DNA of 60,044 nt from Eledone cirrhosa (Eukaryota): NCBI GenBank assembly GCA_964016885.1, contig CAXHJY010000594.1:1-60044 (forward strand). Reading direction: 5' to 3'. Below the pieces are notes generated by a model. It was given only the letters and a program-made list of their open reading frames with translations. It made no database searches and was not told where the DNA came from. Made by a program: the position numbers and the translations under genes. Positions 3,906-47,676 of this stretch are shown piece after piece. Positions within the stretch are counted from its first letter, which is position 1. Each line of letters starts with the position of its first letter.

Positions 3906-4046
3906 TACCAATATAATAATCTCTGTCATCTTCTCCCACCACCCACCACCTTCCTTTTCCTCGTCCTCATCATTACTCTCATGGCGATGATCATGACAAT
4001 CACCCTCTTCTCCCTACTCATAGTATTCACCATTATTAATCGACAA

Positions 4047-4240
4047 GGGCGGTGGATTGGCAGTATCGGCTGAAGGTCAGACGCCATGCTTTGCAGAATA
4101 GAGTTACGCCCCTTTACGTTCTGAATTCAAATTCCGCCGTGGTAAACTTTACCTTTCATCCTTACGGGGTCGATTAAATAAAGTACCAGTAATGCACTGG
4201 GGTAATTGCTGGCCTTGTGCCAAAAGTAGAAACAGTTATT
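4047..4240 (+). mobile_element. tRNA-derived SINE, short subtype, with TSD
   Basis: A-box-like TGGCAGTATCGG, B-box-like ATTCAAATTCC, core, and 3' end ggccttgtgccaaaagtagaaac. Flanking near-repeat ttattaatcgaca (4033-4045) / ttatttatcgaca (4236-4248). Confidence 0.9.
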
Positions 4241-7968: not shown

Positions 7969-8401
7969 CAGAAATAAGGAAAGTATGATGAGACTGTTAG
8001 GACTGCTGAAAAGGAAGGTTAAAGATTGAACCTTAGTAGTGCTGAGGATGGTTATACACGAGGGGGGGGGGGGGGGGCTAGTTAGATGATGAATCGCTTG
8101 AATTACAAAGATGGTTTATGGATTTGATGAATGCATCATGAATATAAGAAGAGTAGATAGGAGTATGAAGAATGAAATTACAAAAAAGATTAATGTTCGT
8201 CATACCACATATCTAGACAGAGAACATAACGCAAGCAAAGAACTTTATCCGAGCTATTGCACTACTTGTTGAGGAAAAATTACAACAAATGAAATCAAAG
8301 TAGCGTAGGGCAAAAGAACCATGGTGGGTTCTATAAAGTAATGGGACAATTAAAACAGGATTTTGTCAAAAGACCGGAAGATAAGAAATAAGCAAAATAA
8401 T

Positions 8402-10488
8402 CCAGTAACGCTGATGAGGAAAGACGAGAACACGACGGATATCTTAGGCAATTTCTGGCCCATAACTCTGCTAAATATAGAGTTTAAGATTTGTTGCCAA
8501 TGTGTTAACGAAGACGTTGGTGCCTGTCGTCCAGGGTCTGGTAAGGGAGGTGCAAACTTGCGAAATCCCGACCAGTTCCATACATGAAAACCTCCACCTC
8601 ATGCAATACATCATAGAGAGGGTAGGGCGTAAACCTGGCTTCGGTGGGACTCTGATCAATTTAGATCAATCAAAAACTTTCGATAGGGTCGACCATCGAT
8701 ACCTGGAGGCAATTCTCAAGGCAGCTGGGATGAGAGACCTGATCGCTGCATTGCACAGCGGCATCCGCTCGATGGTCAAAGTTAATGGTCATCTTTCAGA
8801 CCTCCCGATCGGCCCGTCAAGGATGCTCTCTCTCCTCCCTCCTGTACGTATTGACTCTCAAGCCTTTACAGTGGAAGCTGGAGTTGTTGCAGAACATCCG
8901 GCTCGAAGCAGGACGTGAAAAGGCTGTGTCGGCATATACGGACAACATCACCGTGATGGTGTTGGACACCTTGGAAATCGAGGTGGTCGGAATATGAAAA
9001 GTTGACGGGAGCAAAACTAAATCCGGAAAAGTCGTTGGGCTTGCAACTCGGCACCTGGAGAGGCAAGTTTATGTCATTCAACAACGTTGTAGGGCGCTGA
9101 ACGGACGAACCGGTAAAGCTGTTCGGTGTCTGGTTCGGCCTAGATCTCCAGGTGGATAACATTTGGGACGAGGTTACGACCAGGGGCCACTCTCACACAG
9201 AAATGGGCCGAGAGGAAGCTGTTCCTGAAAGGCCGGATGGAGTAGTTAATGCGTACATCGCATCCGTCATCTATTACCGCCTGACAATCGTGCATTGCCT
9301 CCGTTCACGCCTCACCAAATTGGAACGGCTCCTTTTCAACTTCTTGTGCAATTGACAGGTTCCGTTGGTGAGGCTGTTCATCTGCTGCCAACACCATCTA
9401 CATAGAGGGCTGAGCAGGCCTGGGTAATGATGCGCAAACATGCGTTGGATCTGCGCCATCTCCAGAAACGTTGTCTAACGGTGAACAGGTGTGGTCGCAG
9501 TTTGTGAGACAAGTCTTTCCACAGCTCGTCTCTTTGACTGAACTGCAGTCCTGGGTCAAGAAGAGACGAAGACTGGGTGCCTGGCATCTGGAATGTTGCC
9601 AGGTGCTCACTGCCATCTACAAGGCATGCATTACTGACTTGTGGAGTTATGTGGATCAGCTGTTGTTGCATGTGGGATGGATCCATCTATGAACCGAATC
9701 CATAGTAAAGATCACCCCACTGCCTTCTTTTGACTGGGAAGGGCAAGCAGTTTTCCTGTCTGGTAGTGGTAACAAAGGAGGTTGTGTTGTGGACCAGGTT
9801 GAAAGGACTGAAGTCAGACACTTTTCTCTTCGGCCAATCCCTCATCAGCTTTTTCAAGTTTAAAGGAAGGTGAGGGTGGAGAGAGAAGTACTGCCTCACA
9901 AGTACATTTTCTAAAAGGTGAGTGAATGTGGCGAGAATGGCCTGCGTGAATGGGCTGGTTAAATTGAAGAGGAGAGGGATGCCCATCCCGGGTGCCCTCG
10001 AAGCGTCGGATGGTTCAGGATTGGTGGGACACCTGAGTCGGCCCCGAGTTGTTAACCCCTACCGGGGAATTTATTTTGTTGGCGAAACCAACAGGTAGGA
10101 GCCCCAAGGATAGACCCCGAGCAAGATGGTTAGATAACATCCATAAGCTTTGCTGGTCACGCTTGGGGATCCAGCCGGACCAGTTGGAGACGGTTGCTTG
10201 TGACAGGAGCCGCTGGAGGGAGTGTTTGAGGACTCTGCCCCCCCCCCCACGGCACTCTGAAGAAGAAGAAGAAGAAGAAGAAGAAGAAGAAGAAGAAGAA
10301 GAAGAAGAAGAAGAAGAAGATATTTATATAAATGTTTTATTTTATATTTTTTCATTATTAATTGTTTTTGTTATTGTGTAATTTTTACTCAGTTTTATTG
10401 TAAATCCCCACTGGCCCTGTCTTTCTATTGTCCCCTTTATATCGGCCCTTGTGTCCAATAAACGAAACCATTATTATTATCATTATTA
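8402..10488 (+). mobile_element. 5'-truncated Tx1-like retrotransposon (RT to 3' end), decayed
   Basis: Motifs FWPITLLNIEFKI, LINLDQSKTFDRVDH, RQGCSLS and AYTDNIT. Colinear with 29420-31580. Internal deletion of about 300 bp near 9625. AATAAA at 10457-10462 and (ATT)n tail at 10470-10488. Confidence 0.92.
10078..10320 (+). mobile_element. RTE-clade (Rex3/Expander-like) 3' end with (GAA)n tail, nested in the Tx1 3' UTR
   Basis: KPTGRSPKDRPRARWLDNIHKLCWSRLGIQPDQLETVA...WRECLRTLPP resembles Rex3/Expander C-termini. Second copy at 16550-16832. Confidence 0.8.
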
Positions 10489-10494
10489 GATAAT

Positions 10495-10885
10495 GGGCGG
10501 TAGTTTGGCAGTATCGGTAGAGGGTCGGACGCCATGCTTTGCTGCATAGAGTTACGGCCCTTTATGATCTGAGTTCAATCCCGCCGAGGTTAACTTTGCC
10601 TTTCATCCTTACGGGGTCAATAAAATAAAGTACCAGTCACTCACTGGGGTCGATTTAATCGACTTTTCCCTCCCCCAAAAATTGCTGGCCTTGTGCCTAT
10701 ATAAGAAAATTATTAGAGTTATGGCCATTTTCGTTGTGAGTTCAAATCCCGCCAAGGTTAGCTTAGCCTTTCATCCTTAAGGGGTCGATAAAATGAAGTA
10801 CCAGTAATGTACTGGAGTAGATTTAATAGACTTTTCCCTTCCCCTTCAAATTGCTGGACTTGTACCTAAAATAGAAATAACTGTT
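10495..10885 (+). mobile_element. tRNA-derived SINE (long subtype) followed by a 5'-truncated second copy
   Basis: Full head, core and tail directly after the Tx1 (ATT)n tail. The second copy begins right after the first copy's ATTATT tail. Confidence 0.9.
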
Positions 10886-18985: not shown

Positions 18986-19302
18986 TAAGACTTCCAATCC
19001 AAATTGTCGTTACGCTACTCCACGGAGGCGTAATATATACGAACCTAAACGGACTGAGTGGTATTCTTGTTTAAATGGAGGGGAAATACGAAAGCAAAAG
19101 TGTGTATAGGATCAATGATATATAAAAAAGTAAGGAATGTGTACTTTGAAAGTATTATGAAAAGAAATTGGCAAAATATGAAGGGGAAGGACAGGAATAA
19201 TATTATTGCCTCTATTAACATGTTTGCAATACCAACTATTCTGCACAGCATTGTATTATATAAATTGGAACCTACCAGAATTATACCCAGTAGTTTTACA
19301 CC

Positions 19303-20208
<906 letters not shown>

Positions 20209-20689
20209 CACCACAATATACATTCACTAGATGTATATTCCGCTGAGAATAAGTGGCACAGCACTTGTGTGTATCATCATAGGGCAGTTTTAAGATGGCG
20301 ATTATGAATGTTACGCATTATCTTTCAGACAGCCATGGACAACCCTCCTTCGTGCTGTGTTAGAATACGATCGAGTCCAAGGTAATAAAACCCTCATCAG
20401 AGCAATAACGAAATTCTCACCAGAAATTGGATTAGATTTTGAACAGCTAAAATCTAACACTAAGGCAGTGATTCAAATGGTGATAAACATGTCACATGTA
20501 TTGTCCATAGATGAAGAGACATGAAATCCTGCTTTTACATCACAAATATTTACTGTTGTAAGTTGAATTAATGCTGCAAATATATATAAATATAAAAAGT
20601 AATTTGTTGTATAAGCACCGAAGTATTTTTCGTATGTATATATACGTCAGCAAATATAAACCAATATATATATATACACGTGTAGGCGT

Positions 20690-20977
<288 letters not shown>

Positions 20978-29197: not shown

Positions 29198-29370
29198 TAA
29201 TAATTGTTTCTACGTTTGGCACAAGGCCAGCAATTACCCAGAGCATTACTGGTACTTTATTTTATTGACCCCGTAAGGATGAAAGGCAAAGTTAACCTCG
29301 GCGGGATTTGAACTCAGACTGTAAAGGGATGTAACTATGCTAGAAAGCATACCGATACTGCCAATTCACC
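29198..29370 (-). mobile_element. tRNA-derived SINE (short subtype) between two Tx1 copies
   Basis: Head ggtgaattggcagtatcggt, core and tail, all on the minus strand. Confidence 0.9.
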
Positions 29371-29693
29371 TAATAATAATAATTGTCTCTACTTTTGGCA
29401 CAAGGCTAATAATAATAATAATAATGATTTCATTTATTGGCCACAAGGGCCGACATATAGGGGACAATACAAAAGACTGGGACACTGGGGTTTTACAGAA
29501 AAATCGAGTAAACAATATGAATAACAATAACAAAGTAACAATAACAAAGTAACAATAAAGTAACAATAAAATTACAACAAGAAAAAATTCCCCAATAAGG
29601 GGGATGACCAGCTAGGGTTCGCTCAGTCCTGAACGACCCGACGCTTCGAGAGCACTATGGAAGGGCACCCTTCTCCTCTTCAAATTTACCTAC

Positions 29694-32600
29694 CTACAGG
29701 CGCATGATCAGAGTAGGCCCACTCACACGGGCCATTCTCGCCACATTCACCCACCTTTCAGCAAATGTACTGGGGGGCAGCACTTCTCTCTCCACCCTCA
29801 CCTTCCTTTCCAAGTGAAACTTGAAAAAGTTGATGAGGGATTGGCCGAATAGAAAAGTGTCTGTCTTCAGTCCTTTCAACCTCGTCCATCATACAACCTC
29901 TTTCGCTACTGCCACCAGACAGAGGAAAATTGCCTGCCCTTCCTGGCCAAGAGAAGGCGGCGGGTCGATCTTCACTATGGACTCGGCCGATAGCCGGATC
30001 CGTTCTACACGCGACAACAGCTGTTCAACATAACTCCACAAGTCAGTAATGCACGGACACTGACGAGTGCGTGCAGAACGGTTTCGTCGCTCTGCGCGCA
30101 TCTCCGGCAGGTCTGTCTGACAGCACTTCCGTGCCTGGAGAGTTTATCTCGAACCGGCAGTACCTCCCGGTAGCACTGCCAAGCGAGGGATTTTTGGAAA
30201 TTAGCCATCGTCCCCGGCTCGAAAATCCTCCGGTACAGACTGGTTAGTTCGACTTCGTTGACTCCCAGAGCCTCTCCGAGTGCGTCGTCGCACTTGCCCA
30301 CCACTAATCCTCTATAGAACTCGAGAGTGGAAGTTCCACTGACCGCATTGCCCGCCTGGTAGAGGGCAGTGAGTGCCTGGCAACATTCCAGATGACAGTC
30401 ACCCAGTCTCGGTCTCTTCTTGACCCAGGACTGCAGCTCAGTCAAAGAAACGAGCTGCGGAAAGGCCCGTCTGACAAACGGCGACCATACCTGTTCACCG
30501 TTTAGGCAGAATATCTGGAGATGCCGCAGCCTCAGCGCGTGCCTGCGCATCATTAGCCACGGCATGTCCAGCCCTCCACGTAGAGGGTGCTGGCAGCAGA
30601 TGGACCGCCTCACCAGATGGACCCCTCCACAAGAATTTGAAGAGGAGACGCTCCAAGATGGCGAGGCGCGAACGGGGCCAAGGGACGACAGTCAGACGGT
30701 AGTAGATGACGGACGCGATGTACGCGTTCGCCACCTCCGCCCGACCTTTCAGTGATAGCTTCATCCCAGCCCATTTCTGGGTGAGACTGACTACTCTGCC
30801 CGTCACCTCGTCCCAATTCTTATCCACCTGGAGATCTGGCCCGAACCAAACCCCTAGCAACTTTACCGGTCCGTCCGTCCAGCGCCTAACGACGCTGTTG
30901 GACAGCATGGACTTGCCTCTCCAGGTGCCGAGTTGCAAGCCCACTGACTTTTCCGGGTTAAGTTTTGCTCCCGTCAACATTTCATATTCCTCCAATAAGT
31001 TGCTGACCACCTCGATTTCTGAGGTGTCCGACACCATCATGGTGATCTCGTCCGCATAAGCCGACACAGCCTTTCCGCGTCCCGGTTCGAGCGGGATGCC
31101 CTGCAACAGCTCTAGCTTCCACAGTAAAGGCTCGAGAGTCAATACGTACAGAAGGGAGGAGAGAGGGCACCCTTGATGGATCGATCGGGAGACCTGAAAC
31201 GGTTCCGAGAGGTGGCCATTAATTTTGACCATCGAGCAGGTGCCGCTGTGCATTGCAGCGATCCAGCTTCTGAAGACGGGGCCGAAGCCAGCCGCCTTGA
31301 GGACAGCCTCCAGGTACCGATGGTCGACCCTATCGAATGCTTTCGATTGATCTAAATTGATCAGAGCCCCACCAAAGCCAGGTTTACACCCTACCCTCTC
31401 TATGATGTATCGCATTAGGTGGAGGTTGTCGTGTATGGACCTGGTTGGGATTGCGCAAGTTTGCGCCTCCCCAACCAAATCCCCGACGACAAATCTTAAA
31501 CTCTATGTTGAGCAGAGTTATGGGCCCGAAATTGTCTAATGTGTCCCTCTTGTTCTCGTCTTTCCTTATCAGCGTCACTACTCCCCGGCTCACAGAACTG
31601 GGAATACTCCCGTTTTTCTGCCAGTTGCAGTAGAGGGCTTCGAGGAGATTGGAGAACAAGTCTGGCATATTTACGTAAAGCTGGTAGGGCAGGCCATCCA
31701 AACCGGGTGACTTGCGCCTCATGCAGCCGACAAGGATATCCTGAATCTCGGCTGAAGTAATTGGCCTTTCGCAGCGCCCAGCATCAGCCGTCGAGAGTTG
31801 CGGCAAGCCATCGAGGTAGGGACTGAAGTCCGCCACCATCTGTGACCCACCACTTCCCCCGAACAACCGAGAAAAATGTTGGCGAAAGGCCTCACACATC
31901 CTCTTGTAATCGCTCAGCTCGTGCCCATCTCGGTACGTCAAAGACCGAATCGAGGTTTTATTACCACGCTGCGCATCCGCCACGCGGGCCCATCGAACAG
32001 CTTTGGTTCCCTCGTTTCTCAGAGCACGCGCCTTAGCTCTGACAATGCAACCTTCGTGTTTCGCATTGAAGAAATGGTCTAATGCCATTCTCGTCGCTAG
32101 CACATCAGTTGCAATGCCACTACCAATAGCCTCGTCTAACTTATCTACCAACTCCCCCTCCTTTCTATTTTTCTCTAATGCTAGTTCTTTGCTAAACTCC
32201 ATCGAGATTACTCTAATCTCTCTTTTGAGAGCCCCCCCCCCCCCACCATCTATTGTTGACGATTCCCCCTGTCAACTTTTTCTTAACTGAATTGTTGACC
32301 TGGTCCCTATAAGCCTTACGTGCCGGAAATGACAGGTTTAGCTTCCAGTAACCAGGTCCTAACCTACGCGTCTTATCTAGGTCGACCATACAGATCACAA
32401 ACTTGTGATCTGAATAGGCGACCGTTTCAAAACGTGGACAGCTTACACTATTTCTGTCTATTTTCCTAATGAATATCCTGTCTATATACGATCTAGATGA
32501 CCCTAAGCGGTTAGTCCAGGTCCATACTGGCGCATTAGGGAAATCTAGTCGGTACCTGTCAGACAGTTGGAACTGGCTGATCAGGTTCTTGAGGCTTTTG

Positions 32601-33085
32601 CACCCCTCGCTCCTATCGGATACTCCCACACAGTCCCAGCATGCGTCTAAGATGCCGTTCCAGTCCCCCGCTAACAGTAAAGGGCGAGACGTACCCAGAA
32701 AGGCTTCCAGGCGTCTAAAGAAGTCCGGTCGTCCTGCCCCAGTAGGAGCATAGACGGCCACCAGTCTAAAGGCACCACCTTCATTATTGTTCACGTCCAG
32801 GACCACCAACTTCCCGTCCGGGTCCCGGAAGATCGACCTTACCTCGAGATCCAGGCCTTTCCTAAACAGCACTGTCACCCCGCCTCCCATTCCCGGCCGG
32901 CTAACAGATGCAAATATCTGATAGTCGTCGAAAATGGGGGCTAGTGCGCGCGTGTCGGAAATCCTGGTCTCGTTGACTGCAATTACATCCATTTCTATAG
33001 ACCTGAGGTCGTTGAGCAGGTGACTCTGCTTCCAGGACGATCCCAGGCCTCGAACATTTAAATATCCTACTCTTAATACGGCCAT
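29694..33085 (-). pseudogene. Tx1-like ORF2 (apurinic endonuclease, reverse transcriptase, C-terminal zinc motif), frameshifted
   Basis: Motifs LNVRGL, VYAP, GDWN, IDRIF, SDH, GPGYWKLN; KSPGLDGLP, LDQSKAFDRVDH, QGCPLS, YADE; CRRCAQSDETVLH. Split over ORFs 32213-33085, 31384-32202, 30495-31478, 30005-30613, 29889-30101 and 29694-29879. Confidence 0.93.
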
Positions 33086-33116
33086 GTCGGCAGGTTAAAC
33101 AGAGAGAGAGGAAGGT

Positions 33117-35104
33117 TTACTTACCTTCCGGGCTCTTGTGAAGGTCGGGTTGTTCAACCTCCATAGTTAGTGGGGTTTCTTTTGGGAACCCCTTTAAAAG
33201 TCTTGAAGTGGGTTTTACGTTCGGGGTTGCCACGTCCCGAGGAAAGCTGTCTCGTATTTCTTTGAATATATCGAGCGACATTCGCACCAGAACCAAATCT
33301 TCCGGCACGCGAAATGTGCTTGATTTAAAAATTTCCCCCTCTTTTTGTATATTTTCACTTCGTGCTACGAGGGTCATCAGTTCCTTGTTGGCCCTCCTGG
33401 CGAGAACGAAGTTTTGTATGTTTTGTTGGTGTGATTTTATTTGTTTGCGTGGCTGTGGTGGTGATGGTTTTGGTGGTGTTGTTTCGGTTGTATCTGTGTT
33501 TGTTGTGAGTGCGGTGTCTGTGGTTTCAGATGTTTGTGTGTATATTTGTTCTTGCGTCTGTTTCGGCTGTTTGCGTTTGGGGGATTCTGGTGATGGTGAT
33601 GGTGGTGTTGATGTTGGTGTTATTGGAGAGTTGTTTGCGTGGGTGGTGTCTGCGTTTTTTATTGTGGGTGCTTTTGTGCTTTGTTGAGTTTTTTTTCTTT
33701 TTGTGTTTCCTTTTTTGTATTTTGGGGGATTTTGGATTTCCCTCATTTTCACTACTGGTAGATGAGGGGTCTGTGTCTGTAAGTGTGTCTGTATGTATGT
33801 TTATGGTTTTATTGGTGTGTATATTTTTTGGGGAAGGGGGTATTTGACAGCTTTCCTCGTTTCTCCCCTGGGTGGTCAATGTTGGTGGTGGTCTTTCTAT
33901 TGGTGTTGTTGTTGGTGGTTTTGCCGGTGCTGGTGTTGGTTGTGGTCCTCGCCCCGGCGTCGGCAGCAGTGGAGCCTTTCGACCACATGCCTCTTTCAGC
34001 AGTTGAGGGCAGAAGGCCGCAAATGGGTTTTTTCCCCACAAACAAAACACTGCGGCCTTTCGCCTTCGGTCATAATGTGAATGACCGTCCCATTCTGAAG
34101 GCGGATGTGGTCCGGGATTGTCTTCACATTCTCGGGCCTGATCTGGAGAAGGTTCTCCAGGTCAACCCCGGACTAGTTCTCTCTGGCCGTTCTGCTCACT
34201 TCTATAGGGACTGTATCCGTCCCCTCCACAATCACACATCCCAGAAGCCACCACATGTCAAGTCCTGGTGGGATTCTGGGAATGCGGAGACGGGCCGTTC
34301 TTTTTCCCATGTGGGAGGGGTACATTATGACCTTGCTGGTTTTGCTAGGAGTCATAGCGTGTTTCATAGCGAGGGCTTCTGACTTGAACAACACTGAAAT
34401 GGTGCCGTACTGTCTGCCCCTCTCTATGTACTGGGTGTCTTCTCTGATGCTCCTCAGCGCGACTTCGACATATTCTTGTGGAATTAAAGCTGCCCTTTTG
34501 GTTTGTGCTGAGATGCATCTATAATGCACCGTTTTGCGCTCCACTGCCTCAATAGCTTCTACCGTGACAGTTAAGTTGGCCCAAGTTTGCTCTTGCTTGA
34601 TGAGCTTCCATGCCTGGGCCAACTTTTCATCTTTGTTTGAGAGGTCCATGTTGAAGCATGGCCTCTTTTTTGCTGCTGCCGCAGCGAAAGTGTTCTTGTT
34701 TTCGTTGGGGGTGTTGTTGTCGTTGTTCTTGTTGGTATTGTTGTTAGCACTGTCGCTGTTATCATTGTTGTTTTTGTTGCCACCGTTGTTCTCGGTGCAG
34801 TTGGTATTGTTGCTGTTGGTGTTGTCGCTATTTGTTTTCATGTTAGTGGTGTTGATATTGTTGTTGTAGTTGTTATTTTTTTTTTTGTTATCTGTATTTT
34901 CGTTGTCGCTGTTACTGTCATTTTTTTGAAAATTAGAGTTCTTATTGGTATCATTGGTGTCTTTGTTTACCTTGTTTTTGGTGGTGTTTGTGTTATCAAT
35001 GTGTGTTAATTTCGCTGTAGTGCTCCTCTCAACTTCTACGTCGTTGTCGCACGACAGCCGACATATCGCTGGGGGGGGGGGGGGGGGGGGGCTGGCTCAG
35101 CCAT
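33117..35104 (-). pseudogene. Tx1-like ORF1 (gag-like nucleic-acid-binding protein), disrupted
   Basis: N/T-rich N-terminus, globular segment (ORF 34173-34841), CCHC knuckle CFVCGEKTH..AFC near 34005-34052 across a frameshift, and a P/T/K-rich C-terminus ending just before ORF2. Confidence 0.8.
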
Positions 35105-35310
35105 GTTTTTTTTTCTTCGTAAATTTTTTAACATGTAAAATAAAGTTAAAATATTTGGGCCAAAAGGCCCAAATATTATACTTTACCCTTCACGGGGCAA
35201 AGTCTAAGGGCTTATATCCCTTACACAACAAGAAATATTTAACAACAAATAATGTTAACAGGCAAATAAAGCGACTTACTGGGAGCGAGCAAAATATGTC
35301 CGCTTAGACC

Positions 35311-35517
35311 AATAATAATAATAATAATAATTGTTTCTACTTTTGGCACAAGGCCAGCAATTACCCAGTGCATTACTGGTACTTTATTTTATCTACCCCG
35401 TAAGGATGAAAGGCAAAGTCAACCTCGGCGGGATTTGAACTCAGATCGTAAAGGGACGTAACTATGCTGGAAAGCATGGCGTCCGACCCTCTACCGATAC
35501 TGCCAATCCACCGCCCT
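35311..35517 (-). mobile_element. tRNA-derived SINE (short subtype), full length, tail abutting the Tx1 5' end
   Basis: Complete head, core and tail, with (AAT)n on both sides. Confidence 0.92.
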
Positions 35518-36076
35518 TAATAATAATAATAATATTCTTTAATCACTAGTCACATAACGGAAGTAGTACAGATTTGAATAACAGGAAGATCGCTATAACA
35601 ATATAGATCGCTACTTTACTGCTATGAAAAGTATCCATTATCATCGATGAAATAACATCAAAAAATAGAAAAATAGAAAAAAATAGAAAACAAAAGAGGA
35701 AAATATTGAATGCTACCAATGTAAGTAATACATTTAACTTATTAGTGACATGTTATTGTTTCTTTGTACATAATATAAGTGATATATTGCAAATGTTCGA
35801 ACTATAGGCCGATTAGTCACTAAATATAAACACAAAAATGGTGCCCGAGTCAAATCAATATCAGAGTCAGCTCAAAATAACAGCAACAAACATTAAGCAC
35901 AATATAAATGAAAGCCGTATAATTCTGCTCAAGCTTTTGACCTAATAGTTAAGGTATTGGACTCACAATTATAATGACGTGGGTTCGATTCCTGAACCAA
36001 CCGGCGTTTTGTATTCTTTAGCAAAATACATTATTTCATGTTGTTCCTGTCAGGAATTGCCACCGACAGTAATATT

Positions 36077-36291
36077 GGTTTCTTATATAGGCACAAGGCC
36101 AGCGATTTTGGGGGTGGGGAAAGTCGATTAAATCAACCCCAGTGCGTGACTGGTACTTTATTTTATCGACCCCGTAAGGATGAAAGGCAAAGTTAACCTC
36201 GGCGGGATTTGAACTCAGATCATAAATGGCCGTGACTCTATGCTGCAAACCATGACGTCCGACACTCTACCGATACTGCCAATCCACCGTC
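36077..36291 (-). mobile_element. tRNA-derived SINE (long subtype) with 20-bp TSD, inserted in a different SINE
   Basis: ttgccaccgacagtaatatt at 36057-36076 and 36292-36311. A tRNA-like head of the host element lies at about 35935-36050. Confidence 0.92.
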
Positions 36292-37126
36292 TTGCCACCG
36301 ACAGTAATATTAACAACAGGAAGATCAATGGAAACATTGTTTACATGGTCCGATCTGACGATAAGCACCTTTCCTATCGTTTGTTGTTTAATCCTGTCAG
36401 AGTAATAGTCGAAGAGGCGTATGATGGAAGGCATTCCAACCATGACAGTCACGCCGTTTTGTCAATCAGGAATCCCATTAGTTAATGCGCACTTTTTTAT
36501 TTTAAAAAGTGTGTGTGTGGGGGTAAATTTGAGTGTAGGTTATATTTGAGTGTATTGTGTGCGTGTGTACTATTTGTGTTTGTGTAATTGTATAAGCGTA
36601 CACACCTGTGTGCAAAAGTTATATAGTCGATTATTGAGTCACTATGTATGTGTATTAGTATGGCTATTTCTATGTATTTATGAATCTATGTGTATATTTA
36701 TGTATGTTGTATGTATCTTCTTCTTCTTCTTCTTCTTCTTCTTCTTCGCTTTTAACATCTCGTGCCGAATTTCACCATCCCCAGCATCATTGCTCTACTT
36801 TAGATTATTCATCCAGATGCACTTTTTTCTTTTTTAATTCTCTGAAATTCTTCTAAAAAAAAAACTTTACTACAACAGCAATAAAATGTTTAATGTTTTA
36901 TAGTCTTGGACATTATAATTGTTATACTTACAGATTAAATTTACTGATTCGATGGTAACTTTCATTGTCTTGAAATGTAAGCTTATCCAGTCTATTATTT
37001 AACCACATCGTTACCATATTTCTAATGAAAAACACTGCCTATAGTTTTCAAATCATTTTGTACATAATGAAGTATCGGAGGGTTTAATAATATAACTATT
37101 TTCTCTTTATTCATCTGTTATGTGAA

Positions 37127-45499: not shown

Positions 45500-47676
45500 A
45501 GGAAGGGAGATAAGCTGACAGATCTGTTTCACACTGTTAGTGTTCCTCAGAGCCTAGTACTCGCCGACCTCTGCCGAAAATTATAGAATTAACTGATATG
45601 TGGTCCGAGAGAACCCACAGACACACAGCCATCAAGAAGCACCGGGACCTTATCCAGCCTTAACTTCTACAAGGTTAACTGGAAAAAGATCAAGAGAGAA
45701 CTCCGGAAGCAAATATGGAGCGAATACACCGCCACACAAGACACCAACACACAATGTCAACACTTCATGACAACGATACACACTATATGCCAAAAGTTTG
45801 TCCTGGAGAAAAAGGCCAACAGACACAAAAATCTTATTCCCAGAGATAGAAAAATTCTTATGAGACGAAGAACCAAACTCTCAAACCAGTTGAATGCACA
45901 ACAAGAAAACAAAAACGAGAAGGAATCCTATTTGAAATGTGCACTACTTGACACCGAGAGGGCAAAGAAAGAAAGCAGGGCCATAGAAAATATTAAAACA
46001 AACCCTAAGGCTTTCTTTAAATTTGCAAAAGAAACTGCCTCGGTACACTGCAAGATTGGGCCACTCTTCCATACAGACGGTTCATTAACCGAGAATCCCC
46101 AAGAGATAAGTGAAATACTGAACGAACAGTACAAAAGTGTGTTCACATGTCCACTGAGGCACATGCAAATAACAAAGCCAGAGGAGTTATTTGATGCCAC
46201 AACACTCCATGAAGAAATGGTGACCATCAACCACATAGACATAACGGAGGAGGATGTGGTATACGCCATAGATGAAATTCGAACAGACTCAGCTGATGGA
46301 TTCCCAGCAGTCCTCTTAAAAACATGTAAGCGAGCCTTAGCAACTCCACTGAAGACGCTTCTTCAGAAGCTCCTTGGCTAGCGGTATACTACCCAGGGAG
46401 CTGAAAGAAGGCACAATATGCCCTATCCAGAGCGGAGGCCAAAAACTATAGGCCAGTCTCCCTGACGTCACATATCAATAAGGTCATGGAGCGAATCATC
46501 AGAAAGAAACTGATCACTTTCCTAGAGGAAAATGACCGCCTGACTAGCACGCAGCATGGCTTCCGCCCAGGAAGAAGCTGCCTTACACAGCTGCTACATC
46601 ACTACGACTGGGTACTTAAACAACTGCTAGACAGCTCACATGTGTACGTGATATATATTGACTTTGCGAAGGGCTTTGACAAGGTCAACCACGGAATGAT
46701 ATGTCACAAACTACACGAACTCGGCATAACTGGAAAAGTAGGTGAGTAGCTGCATAACTTCTTAAAGGACAGAAGCCAGACAGTCGCAGCAAACGGGGCC
46801 CTCTCAAAGGAAACATCAATAACAAGTGGGGTGCCCCCAGGCACAGTCCTGGGACCATTACTGTTTTTGGTGGCTCTCTCAGACATGCCCTCTGTAGAAT
46901 ATACAACAACATCCCTCACTAGCTATGCTGATGACACTAAGGTAACACAGGCAATCAAAAACCCGGCTGACGCTGCCCTTTTACAAGATCTGGATGCCAT
47001 ACACAAATGGGCGGAAGACAAAAACATGCAGTTAAATTCTGGCAAATTCCAAGCCCTACAATACAAACCTGCAAACACAAATATAGTACAACACAGTTAC
47101 ACAGGAGCAGAAGAGACCGATATACCGTGTCGAAATCGATACGAGACCTGGGCATAGACATGAACGATAATGCATCTTTTTCCTCACACATCATGAAAGT
47201 GGCGACAATGTGCAGACGACTCGCTGGTTGGATCTTGAGGACTTTCCGGACAAGAGACCGAGACACCATGTTCCACACCTTGGAACGAAGACAGGAGTGA
47301 TACGCAGTGATCTACATGTGGAAAATCCTAGAGGGACAAACACCAAACTTTCGCATTGGGAGCTGGACCAACCGTCGAACAGGACGTCACTGTGCAATAG
47401 CCTGGGGTTCAAGGGCCTTCAACTCTTCAACAAACTGCCCAAAGATATGAGAGATTTGCATGATGTGGATGTGGAGGTCTTCAAGAAACATCTCGACACC
47501 TTGCTAACCAGGATCCCAGGTGAGCCCACAGCAAGGCACGAGGGAAACCTAAGGGCAGCAGCAACAAACTCCCTCTTGCACCAGTGGCCAACCAATACAG
47601 GCTGGAGATAAAATGTGTATCAACAAGGGCGGTTCCCCAGCATGGGCTGGAACAGGTAAAAGAATAAACGAATAAA

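Follow-up and report, generated by a model that had tools for sequence, protein, structure and literature searches.

An abundant SINE of the octopod Eledone cirrhosa shares its 3' terminal motif with Tx1-group LINEs, its probable source of retrotransposition

Background

Which LINE copies the most abundant SINE of the octopod Eledone cirrhosa? The question is raised by a 60,044-nt stretch of its genome (contig CAXHJY010000594.1 of assembly GCA_964016885.1, hereafter the window), in which LINEs and SINEs end in a similar short motif followed by ATT-type repeats. An earlier note on this DNA had proposed that the SINE is mobilised by an (ATT)n-tailed LINE of the Tx1 group, and had considered such a pairing uncommon. 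In well-known stringent pairs, for example UnaSINE and UnaL2 of the eel, SINE and LINE have a common terminal stem-loop and a short-repeat tail. Stringent pairs of this kind are also described for the CORE- and V-SINEs of bivalves (PMC4824008). The L1 clade, by contrast, is named as the exception to tail sharing, with three cases against more than 800 LINE families, and the same 2013 review left undecided whether ancestral L1-like elements were stringent (PMC3747384).

Few precedents for a pairing with Tx1 were found in the literature searched (which includes PMC3531059, PMC10294476 and PMC5753468), in agreement with the earlier note. A short common 3' end is described for ZmSINE2 and ZmSINE3 with LINE1-1_ZM in maize, and for SINEX-3_CR with L1-1_CR in Chlamydomonas (Ohshima 2013, PMC3747384). 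For the crocodilian SINEU, movement by Tx1 (Tx1-Mar) was inferred from a shared target and overlapping age (Kojima 2015, PMC4494074). Microsatellite targets are known from several Tx1 elements, namely (TC)n in Kibi, (TTC)n in Koshi and (TTCC/TTTC)n in crocodilian families (PMC4494074, PMC3812793). As regards octopuses, abundant SINEs and recently active L1-Tx1, Dong-R4, RTE and CR1 elements have been reported, with no partner LINE named in the passages cited here (PMC13282606, PMC8967140). The octopus tRNA-SINEs OK, OR1 and OR2, which are CORE-type, abundant like the SINE studied here, and have a tRNA-like head, as it too may have, are likewise mentioned in the passages cited with their partner LINE unnamed (PMC4824008, PMC4758252).

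Results

Architecture of the window

Read along the minus strand, the centre of the window is a nest of a SINE, (ATT)7, a LINE, (ATT)6, a 23-nt SINE end, (ATT)4 and a further SINE. The LINE, here called Tx-A, is a full-length, decayed copy of ~5.9 kb (29426..35310, minus), and the same 5' start was found in 10 of 20 copies. Its ORF1 region (33120..35096, minus) is frameshifted, with a zinc-knuckle remnant near 34050, and its ORF2 (29697..33094, minus, as spanned by tblastn) is distributed over several frames, with Pfam matches to an AP endonuclease (PF03372), a reverse transcriptase (RT; PF00078) and a C-terminal zinc-binding domain (zf-RVT, PF13966). The LINE body closes with a predicted hairpin GGCC-CTTGT-GGCC (29439..29451, minus; pair probability 0.95-1.0, and covariation, see below) and, as its final bases, AATAAA then GAAATC (29426..29438, minus). 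The complete end, GGCCCTTGTGGCCAATAAATGAAATC at 29451-29426 on the minus strand, is followed by (ATT)6 (29408..29425, minus), the tail or target repeat of the LINE. Right after this tail stands a 23-nt SINE 3' fragment that starts within the hairpin (29384..29406, minus), and a SINE of the short subfamily (29205..29370, minus) lies in the same ATT array. At the other side of the LINE, its insertion site is the (ATT)7 (35331-35311, minus) downstream of a full SINE of the short subfamily (35332..35517, minus), which carries the terminal motif TGGC-CTTGT-GCCA at 35356-35344 (minus).

A second, 5'-truncated Tx-A-like LINE (8387..10469, plus; ~79% identical) has its end at 10444-10469 (plus) and an ATT repeat at 10470-10488, with a SINE of the long, older subfamily directly behind its tail (10493..10710, plus). 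Other SINEs are a short-subfamily copy with a target duplication of 13-14 nt (4045..4234, plus) and a long-subfamily copy with one of 20 nt (36076..36292, minus). The SINE ends compared here lie at 4211-4234 (plus) and ~35355-35332 (minus); re-reading of the window sequence located every LINE and SINE end string that the earlier note had quoted, each in its place.

Diverged Tx1-like pieces are located at ~29190-26560 and 7157-6428 (both minus), with 68% identity to Tx-A at the ORF1/ORF2 junction, and one of them begins immediately behind the SINE at 29205. An inverted repeat (AATATTTGGGC ... GCCCAAATATT), possibly a promoter or an RNA element, is common to two diverged Tx1-like 5' UTRs (~35180-35150 and 29100-29070, minus). 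The window further contains a CR1-like LINE that ends in a TAAAAGAG-type repeat (45524-47663, plus), a Dong/R4-like fragment (19058-19306, plus) and a short repeat (~20650-20870, plus; also in sample blocks C4 and C9) whose end resembles that of an RTE-like LINE with (TGA)n; this repeat could represent another SINE/LINE pair or simply a truncated RTE.

Tx1-group LINEs

Possession of an ORF1 with a zinc knuckle is a feature of Tx1-group LINEs, and sister copies of Tx-A encode an intact one (CX2CX4HX4C), the window copy being frameshifted. A protein 76% identical to the window RT (P0001) scored 271-315 bits against four YTX2/TX1-named proteins and 172-174 bits against human L1 ORF2. The best Atlas cluster for a sister ORF2 was 'Transposon TX1 149 kDa' (0.98; such names are automatic), and a cluster look-up and NCBIfam returned no clade names for the LINE proteins. 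In an RT tree that, after a coverage filter, was without Dong rows and comprised neither an L1 row nor a curated Tx1, the window group joined the YTX2-named proteins against CR1 and RTE (99/96). Moreover, (ATT)n stood on both sides of all ten full-length Tx-A copies. Judged by bit scores, automatic names, ORF1 zinc knuckle and repeat targeting, the window LINE is a member of the Tx1 group.

The Tx-A end is a true family terminus in all 30 loci examined (the window being one) among 40 of 3001 candidates, and all 30 continue past it into an ATT-type repeat. Exact-pattern counts over the whole genome gave 1,888 occurrences of the 20-nt Tx-A end and none of the reversed pattern. Three related Tx-like groups were present in the genome sample described below: two tailed by (ATT)n, Tx-A and Tx-B, and a set of (ATCT)n-tailed families. 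In the RT tree the (ATCT)n families form the sister of Tx-A, and Tx-B pairs with a protein of Argonauta hians, a homologue of the window RT (63%) placed within the same LINE group. The (ATCT)n families (random blocks C1, C3, C4, C5, C8 and C28) end in and insert into (ATCT)n, often as head-to-tail arrays, and this is a target switch in which the terminal stem was kept. An unbroken ORF2 of 1139 aa with a CCHC motif was found in two Tx-B copies, which form a tandem pair with 99.7% identity (G000:C21:10,025,700-10,037,600; L202-L203).

The SINE

The SINE is ~190-220 nt long and dispersed, with a series of 5' truncations and with target site duplications (TSDs). Its 24-nt short-subfamily end occurs in at least 150,743 exact copies in the genome, and the reversed pattern is absent. 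In a 1.2-Mb sample (18 blocks) we counted 137 SINE tails, which with 14 in the window make 151 (123 short and 28 long subfamily); extrapolation of the sample density to the 3.0-Gb genome gives roughly 340,000 copies. Motifs resembling A and B boxes lie 63 nt apart (35505-35494 and 35442-35431, minus, in the SINE 35332..35517). ARAGORN found no tRNA gene within the window, and a scan of two SINE copies against Rfam was likewise without a tRNA match. The SINE would probably be transcribed by Pol III. The SINE is probably of the same lineage as the octopus OR1/OR2. A reading of the SINE body as U2 was rejected (Rfam E=1, 16.7 bits against a cut-off of 46 bits). One as a Meta domain found no support by eye, the body looking unlike BivaMeta and BivaMD as described in PMC4824008. 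At some sites (L053-L055 in block C3, 44633-45203; block C5, 75938-76312; block C7, 66332-66707) two or three SINEs form tandem arrays spaced by the same target duplication, which suggests that a used site is reused.

Comparison of LINE 3' ends

Eleven LINE end types (three Tx-like, five Dong/R4-like, two RTE-like and one CR1-like, with 2-22 copies each) were taken from the 1.2-Mb sample; they represent LINEs common enough to appear there, with clade labels read from peptides. Misassigned rows (four ATT-tailed ones from the TATC set, two from the Dong-D set, one from CR1 and one from RTE) were removed beforehand, and the RTE-TGA set possibly contains an RTE-tailed SINE alongside LINE ends. When repeat tails were excluded and alignments anchored to the terminus, the Tx-like types alone were significant for both SINE subfamilies (14.3-20.5 bits, p 0.0007-0.0013), the other eight having p of at least 0.056. 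Such Tx-like scores (14-21 bits) were reached by at most one in 1500 dinucleotide shuffles, and a 2.52-Mb control of reversed sequence predicts 0.0001-0.007 such end matches across the 11 families. The similarity between SINE and Tx1 ends on which the earlier note relied therefore exceeds both kinds of control. When 1.26 Mb were scanned with the SINE tail, the top recurring non-SINE matches were Tx-like ends. Among Tx ends, those with (ATCT)n equal Tx-A in their match to the SINE and surpass Tx-B. Without anchoring, CR1 showed a weak match to the short SINE (13.1 bits, p=0.004).

Insertion sites

The duplications of the SINE begin with ATTAT exactly where its body ends. Target variants (ACTAT, GTTAT, AATAT) are present in both duplication copies, which indicates that the SINE 'tail' derives from the target, and the perfect ATT run after the SINE is at most 6 nt long in 101 of 151 copies. 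The (ATT)n in which the SINE had been said to end is thus present as sequence, but most of it represents the first bases of the target duplication.

A TSD was called at 53 of 151 SINE ends and at 12 of 39 Tx-A ends, with medians of 17 and 18 nt (Mann-Whitney p=0.56) and lengths of about 12-21 nt in both. The 39 Tx-A ends come from the 143 (out of 1888 exact ones) in which ATTATT is followed by a base other than A, their ATTATT start thus being given by construction; the caller found no TSD at 27 of them and fired at 6 of 60 control sites. Duplications of 38-40 nt (eight SINE calls, one Tx-A call) are likely tandem duplicates. The TSD comparison covers SINE and Tx-A: for LINEs, a first caller working over 7 kb had picked up largely artefacts of simple repeats, with no usable lengths for Dong, RTE or CR1. 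At sites away from ATT runs and element ends, the base before the SINE duplication is C or T in 32 of 34 cases, compared with 59% of 5471 background ATTAT sites (binomial ~5e-6, calculated by hand), and it is C or T at all seven comparable Tx-A sites. The short SINE itself ends in A. The pyrimidine points to an endonuclease preference for ATAAT/R on the bottom strand, which resembles the TpA cut described for human L1 (PMC13295347). The TSD lengths and target motifs of SINE and Tx-A, for which the earlier note had wished to see a comparison, are accordingly alike.

SINE and Tx elements also insert into each other's tails on the same strand. Target stringency is not the same in the two: the ATT runs at 13 random Tx-ATT ends (5-60 nt, median 16) are longer than those at SINE ends, which could be due to longer AUU tails on the LINE RNA or to a looser, unsampled Tx1 family.

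Chimeras and ages

At five loci a SINE body runs into a Tx1 end, the junction lying within the common motif: L144, one of 14 pattern matches, and L260-L263, all four of four. Their crossover points and LINE ends differ. On the flanks of L144 there is a 17-nt near-duplicate (low in complexity, judged by eye), as would result from a template switch within one insertion; gene conversion would also fit. A pattern search for the reverse chimera (LINE body with SINE end) gave a single match, a plain SINE.

Ages were estimated as divergence from the column majority. Medians are 2.1% (n=25) and 3.2% (n=41) for short SINEs and 10.5% (n=11) for long ones, and divergence is ~5% (n=15-20) in Tx-A and 6.4% (n=9) in Tx-B. 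Pairwise identities overlap too, and the activity periods of SINE and Tx1 thus overlap, as the proposed partnership demands. Dong-B and Dong-C are equally young, however, so age does not discriminate between the candidate drivers.

The terminal motif

All three Tx-like groups end in a 4-nt stem, a C-N-N-G-T loop, the second 4-nt stem, AATAAA, GAAA and the repeat. The motif reported for the (ATT)n-tailed Tx1 is thus real, but it belongs to the whole Tx1-like group, including (ATCT)n elements, rather than to one family. Three stem types occur (GGCC/GGCC, AACC/GGTT and TGCC/GGCA), and four Watson-Crick pairs are possible in 44 of 58 Tx-like ends, a set that includes loci chosen for Tx-A. The SINE carries TGGC-CTTGT-GCCA in 64 and TGGC-CTTGT-GCCT in 44 of 151 copies, followed by a 6-nt spacer and GAAA, without AATAAA. 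Altogether the common motif comprises ~26 nt, with ~18 of 26 columns matching. A pattern search for a LINE with the exact SINE stem plus AATAAA gave 14 matches, all of them SINE bodies, and hence no such LINE family is evident.

Among the 39 short-tailed Tx-A insertions, a set selected for its short tails, eight are only 23-34 nt long, reaching back roughly as far as the first (5') base of the terminal stem (e.g. L213, L214, L216, L220, L223, L226), several with clean duplications of 16-18 nt; this suggests stalling at the stem.

Discussion

A probable Tx1-group driver and the possible role of the hairpin

Taken together, we consider it probable (roughly 80%) that the SINE is copied by the ORF2 protein of ATT-targeting Tx1-group LINEs, a reading drawn from sequence comparison. 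The mobilisation by (ATT)n-tailed Tx1 that had been proposed finds support in the terminus and the ages, and independently in TSDs, target, polarity and chimeras. Since the (ATCT)n sister families keep the stem and not the target, the ATT-tailed families are the likely drivers. In the mechanism we envisage, the AP-type endonuclease would nick the bottom strand at 5'-ATAAT/R-3', and the freed 3' end would pair with the AUUAU that closes the RNA body. The ORF2 protein would grip the RNA by the small stem with its C-N-N-G-U loop, reverse transcription would start at the last base of the body, and a second nick ~17 nt away would create the target duplication. Probably transcribed by Pol III, the SINE would have retained stem, loop and GAAA, and would have lost AATAAA because it was not needed.

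Given a Tx1 partner, the balance of the sequence evidence leans, at about three to two, towards a hairpin that is needed. The stem covaries across LINE families and SINE: both sides have changed in three of four pairs and 90% of cells are paired, a result reached in none of 500 shuffles, with ten hand-picked rows of uncontrolled relatedness. The loop CTTGT is nearly invariant across the 151 SINEs, and the stem is also where the 23-34-nt Tx-A copies (8 of 39) stop. A less likely, though by no means negligible, alternative keeps Tx1 as the driver and gives the hairpin another role: recognition would be relaxed, any RNA ending in AUUAU could pair with the nick, and the 26 nt would be a relic of a template switch onto a Tx1 end at the birth of the SINE. 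Such a relic would suit the folding of the SINE, in which upstream pairing competes with the stem. While LINE-end hairpins fold well (pair probabilities 0.6-1.0), the SINE hairpin differs from the predicted minimum-energy fold in 60-nt context, where its pairs are compatible and weakly predicted (median probability 0.45 in short and 0.26 in long copies, 0 in one window copy; 0.95 and 0.69 in 32-nt context). Furthermore, the youngest SINE subfamily (GCCT, the one with the median of 2.1%) is mismatched in the outer pair, and there is hardly any conservation in the spacer that separates stem from GAAA.

Dong elements as a possible source or driver

The claim that Tx1 is the best LINE match holds at the terminus, among the 11 end types, but not for internal sequence. 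Without anchoring, Dong-B matches the long SINE subfamily with 23.3 bits (p=0.0007), above any Tx end (19-21 bits), in a gap-free alignment of 18 of 21 positions. As no peak of at least 23.3 bits occurred in the 2.52-Mb reversed control, this match is real. The SINE tail could accordingly stem from the Dong-B 3' UTR, its likeness to Tx1 being convergence in a piece that happened to suit Tx1, and LINE-derived pieces may indeed come from a LINE other than the current partner (PMC5786205). We regard this as improbable, despite the better match of the older subfamily, because the matching stretch covers 21 nt and lies 46 nt before the Dong-B end, in the loop of a 9-bp stem (L052:6970-7015, L111-L135) whose arms the SINE lacks, and because the younger subfamily scores lower (16.2 bits). 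The transfer may also have run in reverse, with Dong-B capturing the piece.

Still less probable is that the actual driver is a Dong/R4 element or another, unsampled LINE. In its favour, three Dong-like families with TAA tails share the microsatellite target in this genome, Dong elements are described as targeting TAA repeats, a snail being one example (PMC3812793), both Dong-B and Dong-C are of recent age, and the targets of the SINE are looser than those of Tx-A. Against Dong, the TAA-tailed families sit in these repeats on the opposite strand, with 8 of 15 of their ends meeting a Tx or SINE end tail to tail, and have no end similarity to the SINE (p of at least 0.16). Dong-B ends in (CATA)n at 25 of 25 loci examined, and a genome-wide pattern for SINE/Dong-B chimeras had no match, a weak control with a longer pattern and a rarer subfamily. 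Finally, chance similarity between two short, A/T-rich ends, conceivable for so short a motif with so few matching columns, can be dismissed in view of the dinucleotide shuffles and the 2.52-Mb reversed control, the independent insertion signature and the chimeras.

Comparison with known systems

As is proposed here for the octopod SINE, SINEU was inferred to be moved by Tx1 LINEs, and some SINE families of that system have a weaker target preference (PMC4494074). SINEU elements, however, have U1/U2 heads, poly(A) tails and ~10,000 copies per genome, and for SINEU-1 the passages cited report that no LINE with the same 3' end was found (PMC4494074); the octopod SINE has Pol III-type boxes, no poly(A), a 3' terminus in common with Tx1-group LINEs and at least 150,000 copies. 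The maize pair combines an L1-clade LINE with a tRNA-SINE, and its hairpin covaries with a conserved loop (PMC3747384). The maize and Chlamydomonas pairs differ from the octopod case in being from a plant and an alga and in their poly(A)/poly(T) ends (PMC3747384), whereas here the LINE is an animal Tx1-group element with a microsatellite target. Preference for a simple repeat is shared with Kibi and Koshi, from whose targets, as published, (ATT)n and (ATCT)n are distinct. In comparison with the stringent L2, CR1 and RTE pairs, the LINE belongs to another clade, and there are clear duplications of 12-21 nt together with a target motif. No octopus SINE/Tx1 pair and no Tx1-derived SINE tail was met with in the literature searched, although entries in Repbase, Dfam or SINEBase could hold one.

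Conclusions

We propose, at even odds, a stringent recognition in an animal lineage of the L1 superclade: octopod Tx1 ORF2 proteins would recognise GAAA and a 13-nt stem-loop (C-N-N-G-U loop) in place of poly(A), this module would have outlasted the change of target between (ATT)n and (ATCT)n, and capture of the module would have raised a single Pol III SINE to several hundred thousand copies. If true, the octopod SINE would be, for the literature searched, the first of tRNA type whose tail derives from Tx1, and ~26 nt would suffice to make an RNA a substrate. The apparent ATT tail of the SINE is largely target DNA. A minimal covarying motif, an unbroken ORF2 and two natural targets make the question of L1 stringency testable by a reporter assay. 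In this octopod, Tx1 would be the likely engine of a SINE that forms a major part of the genome.
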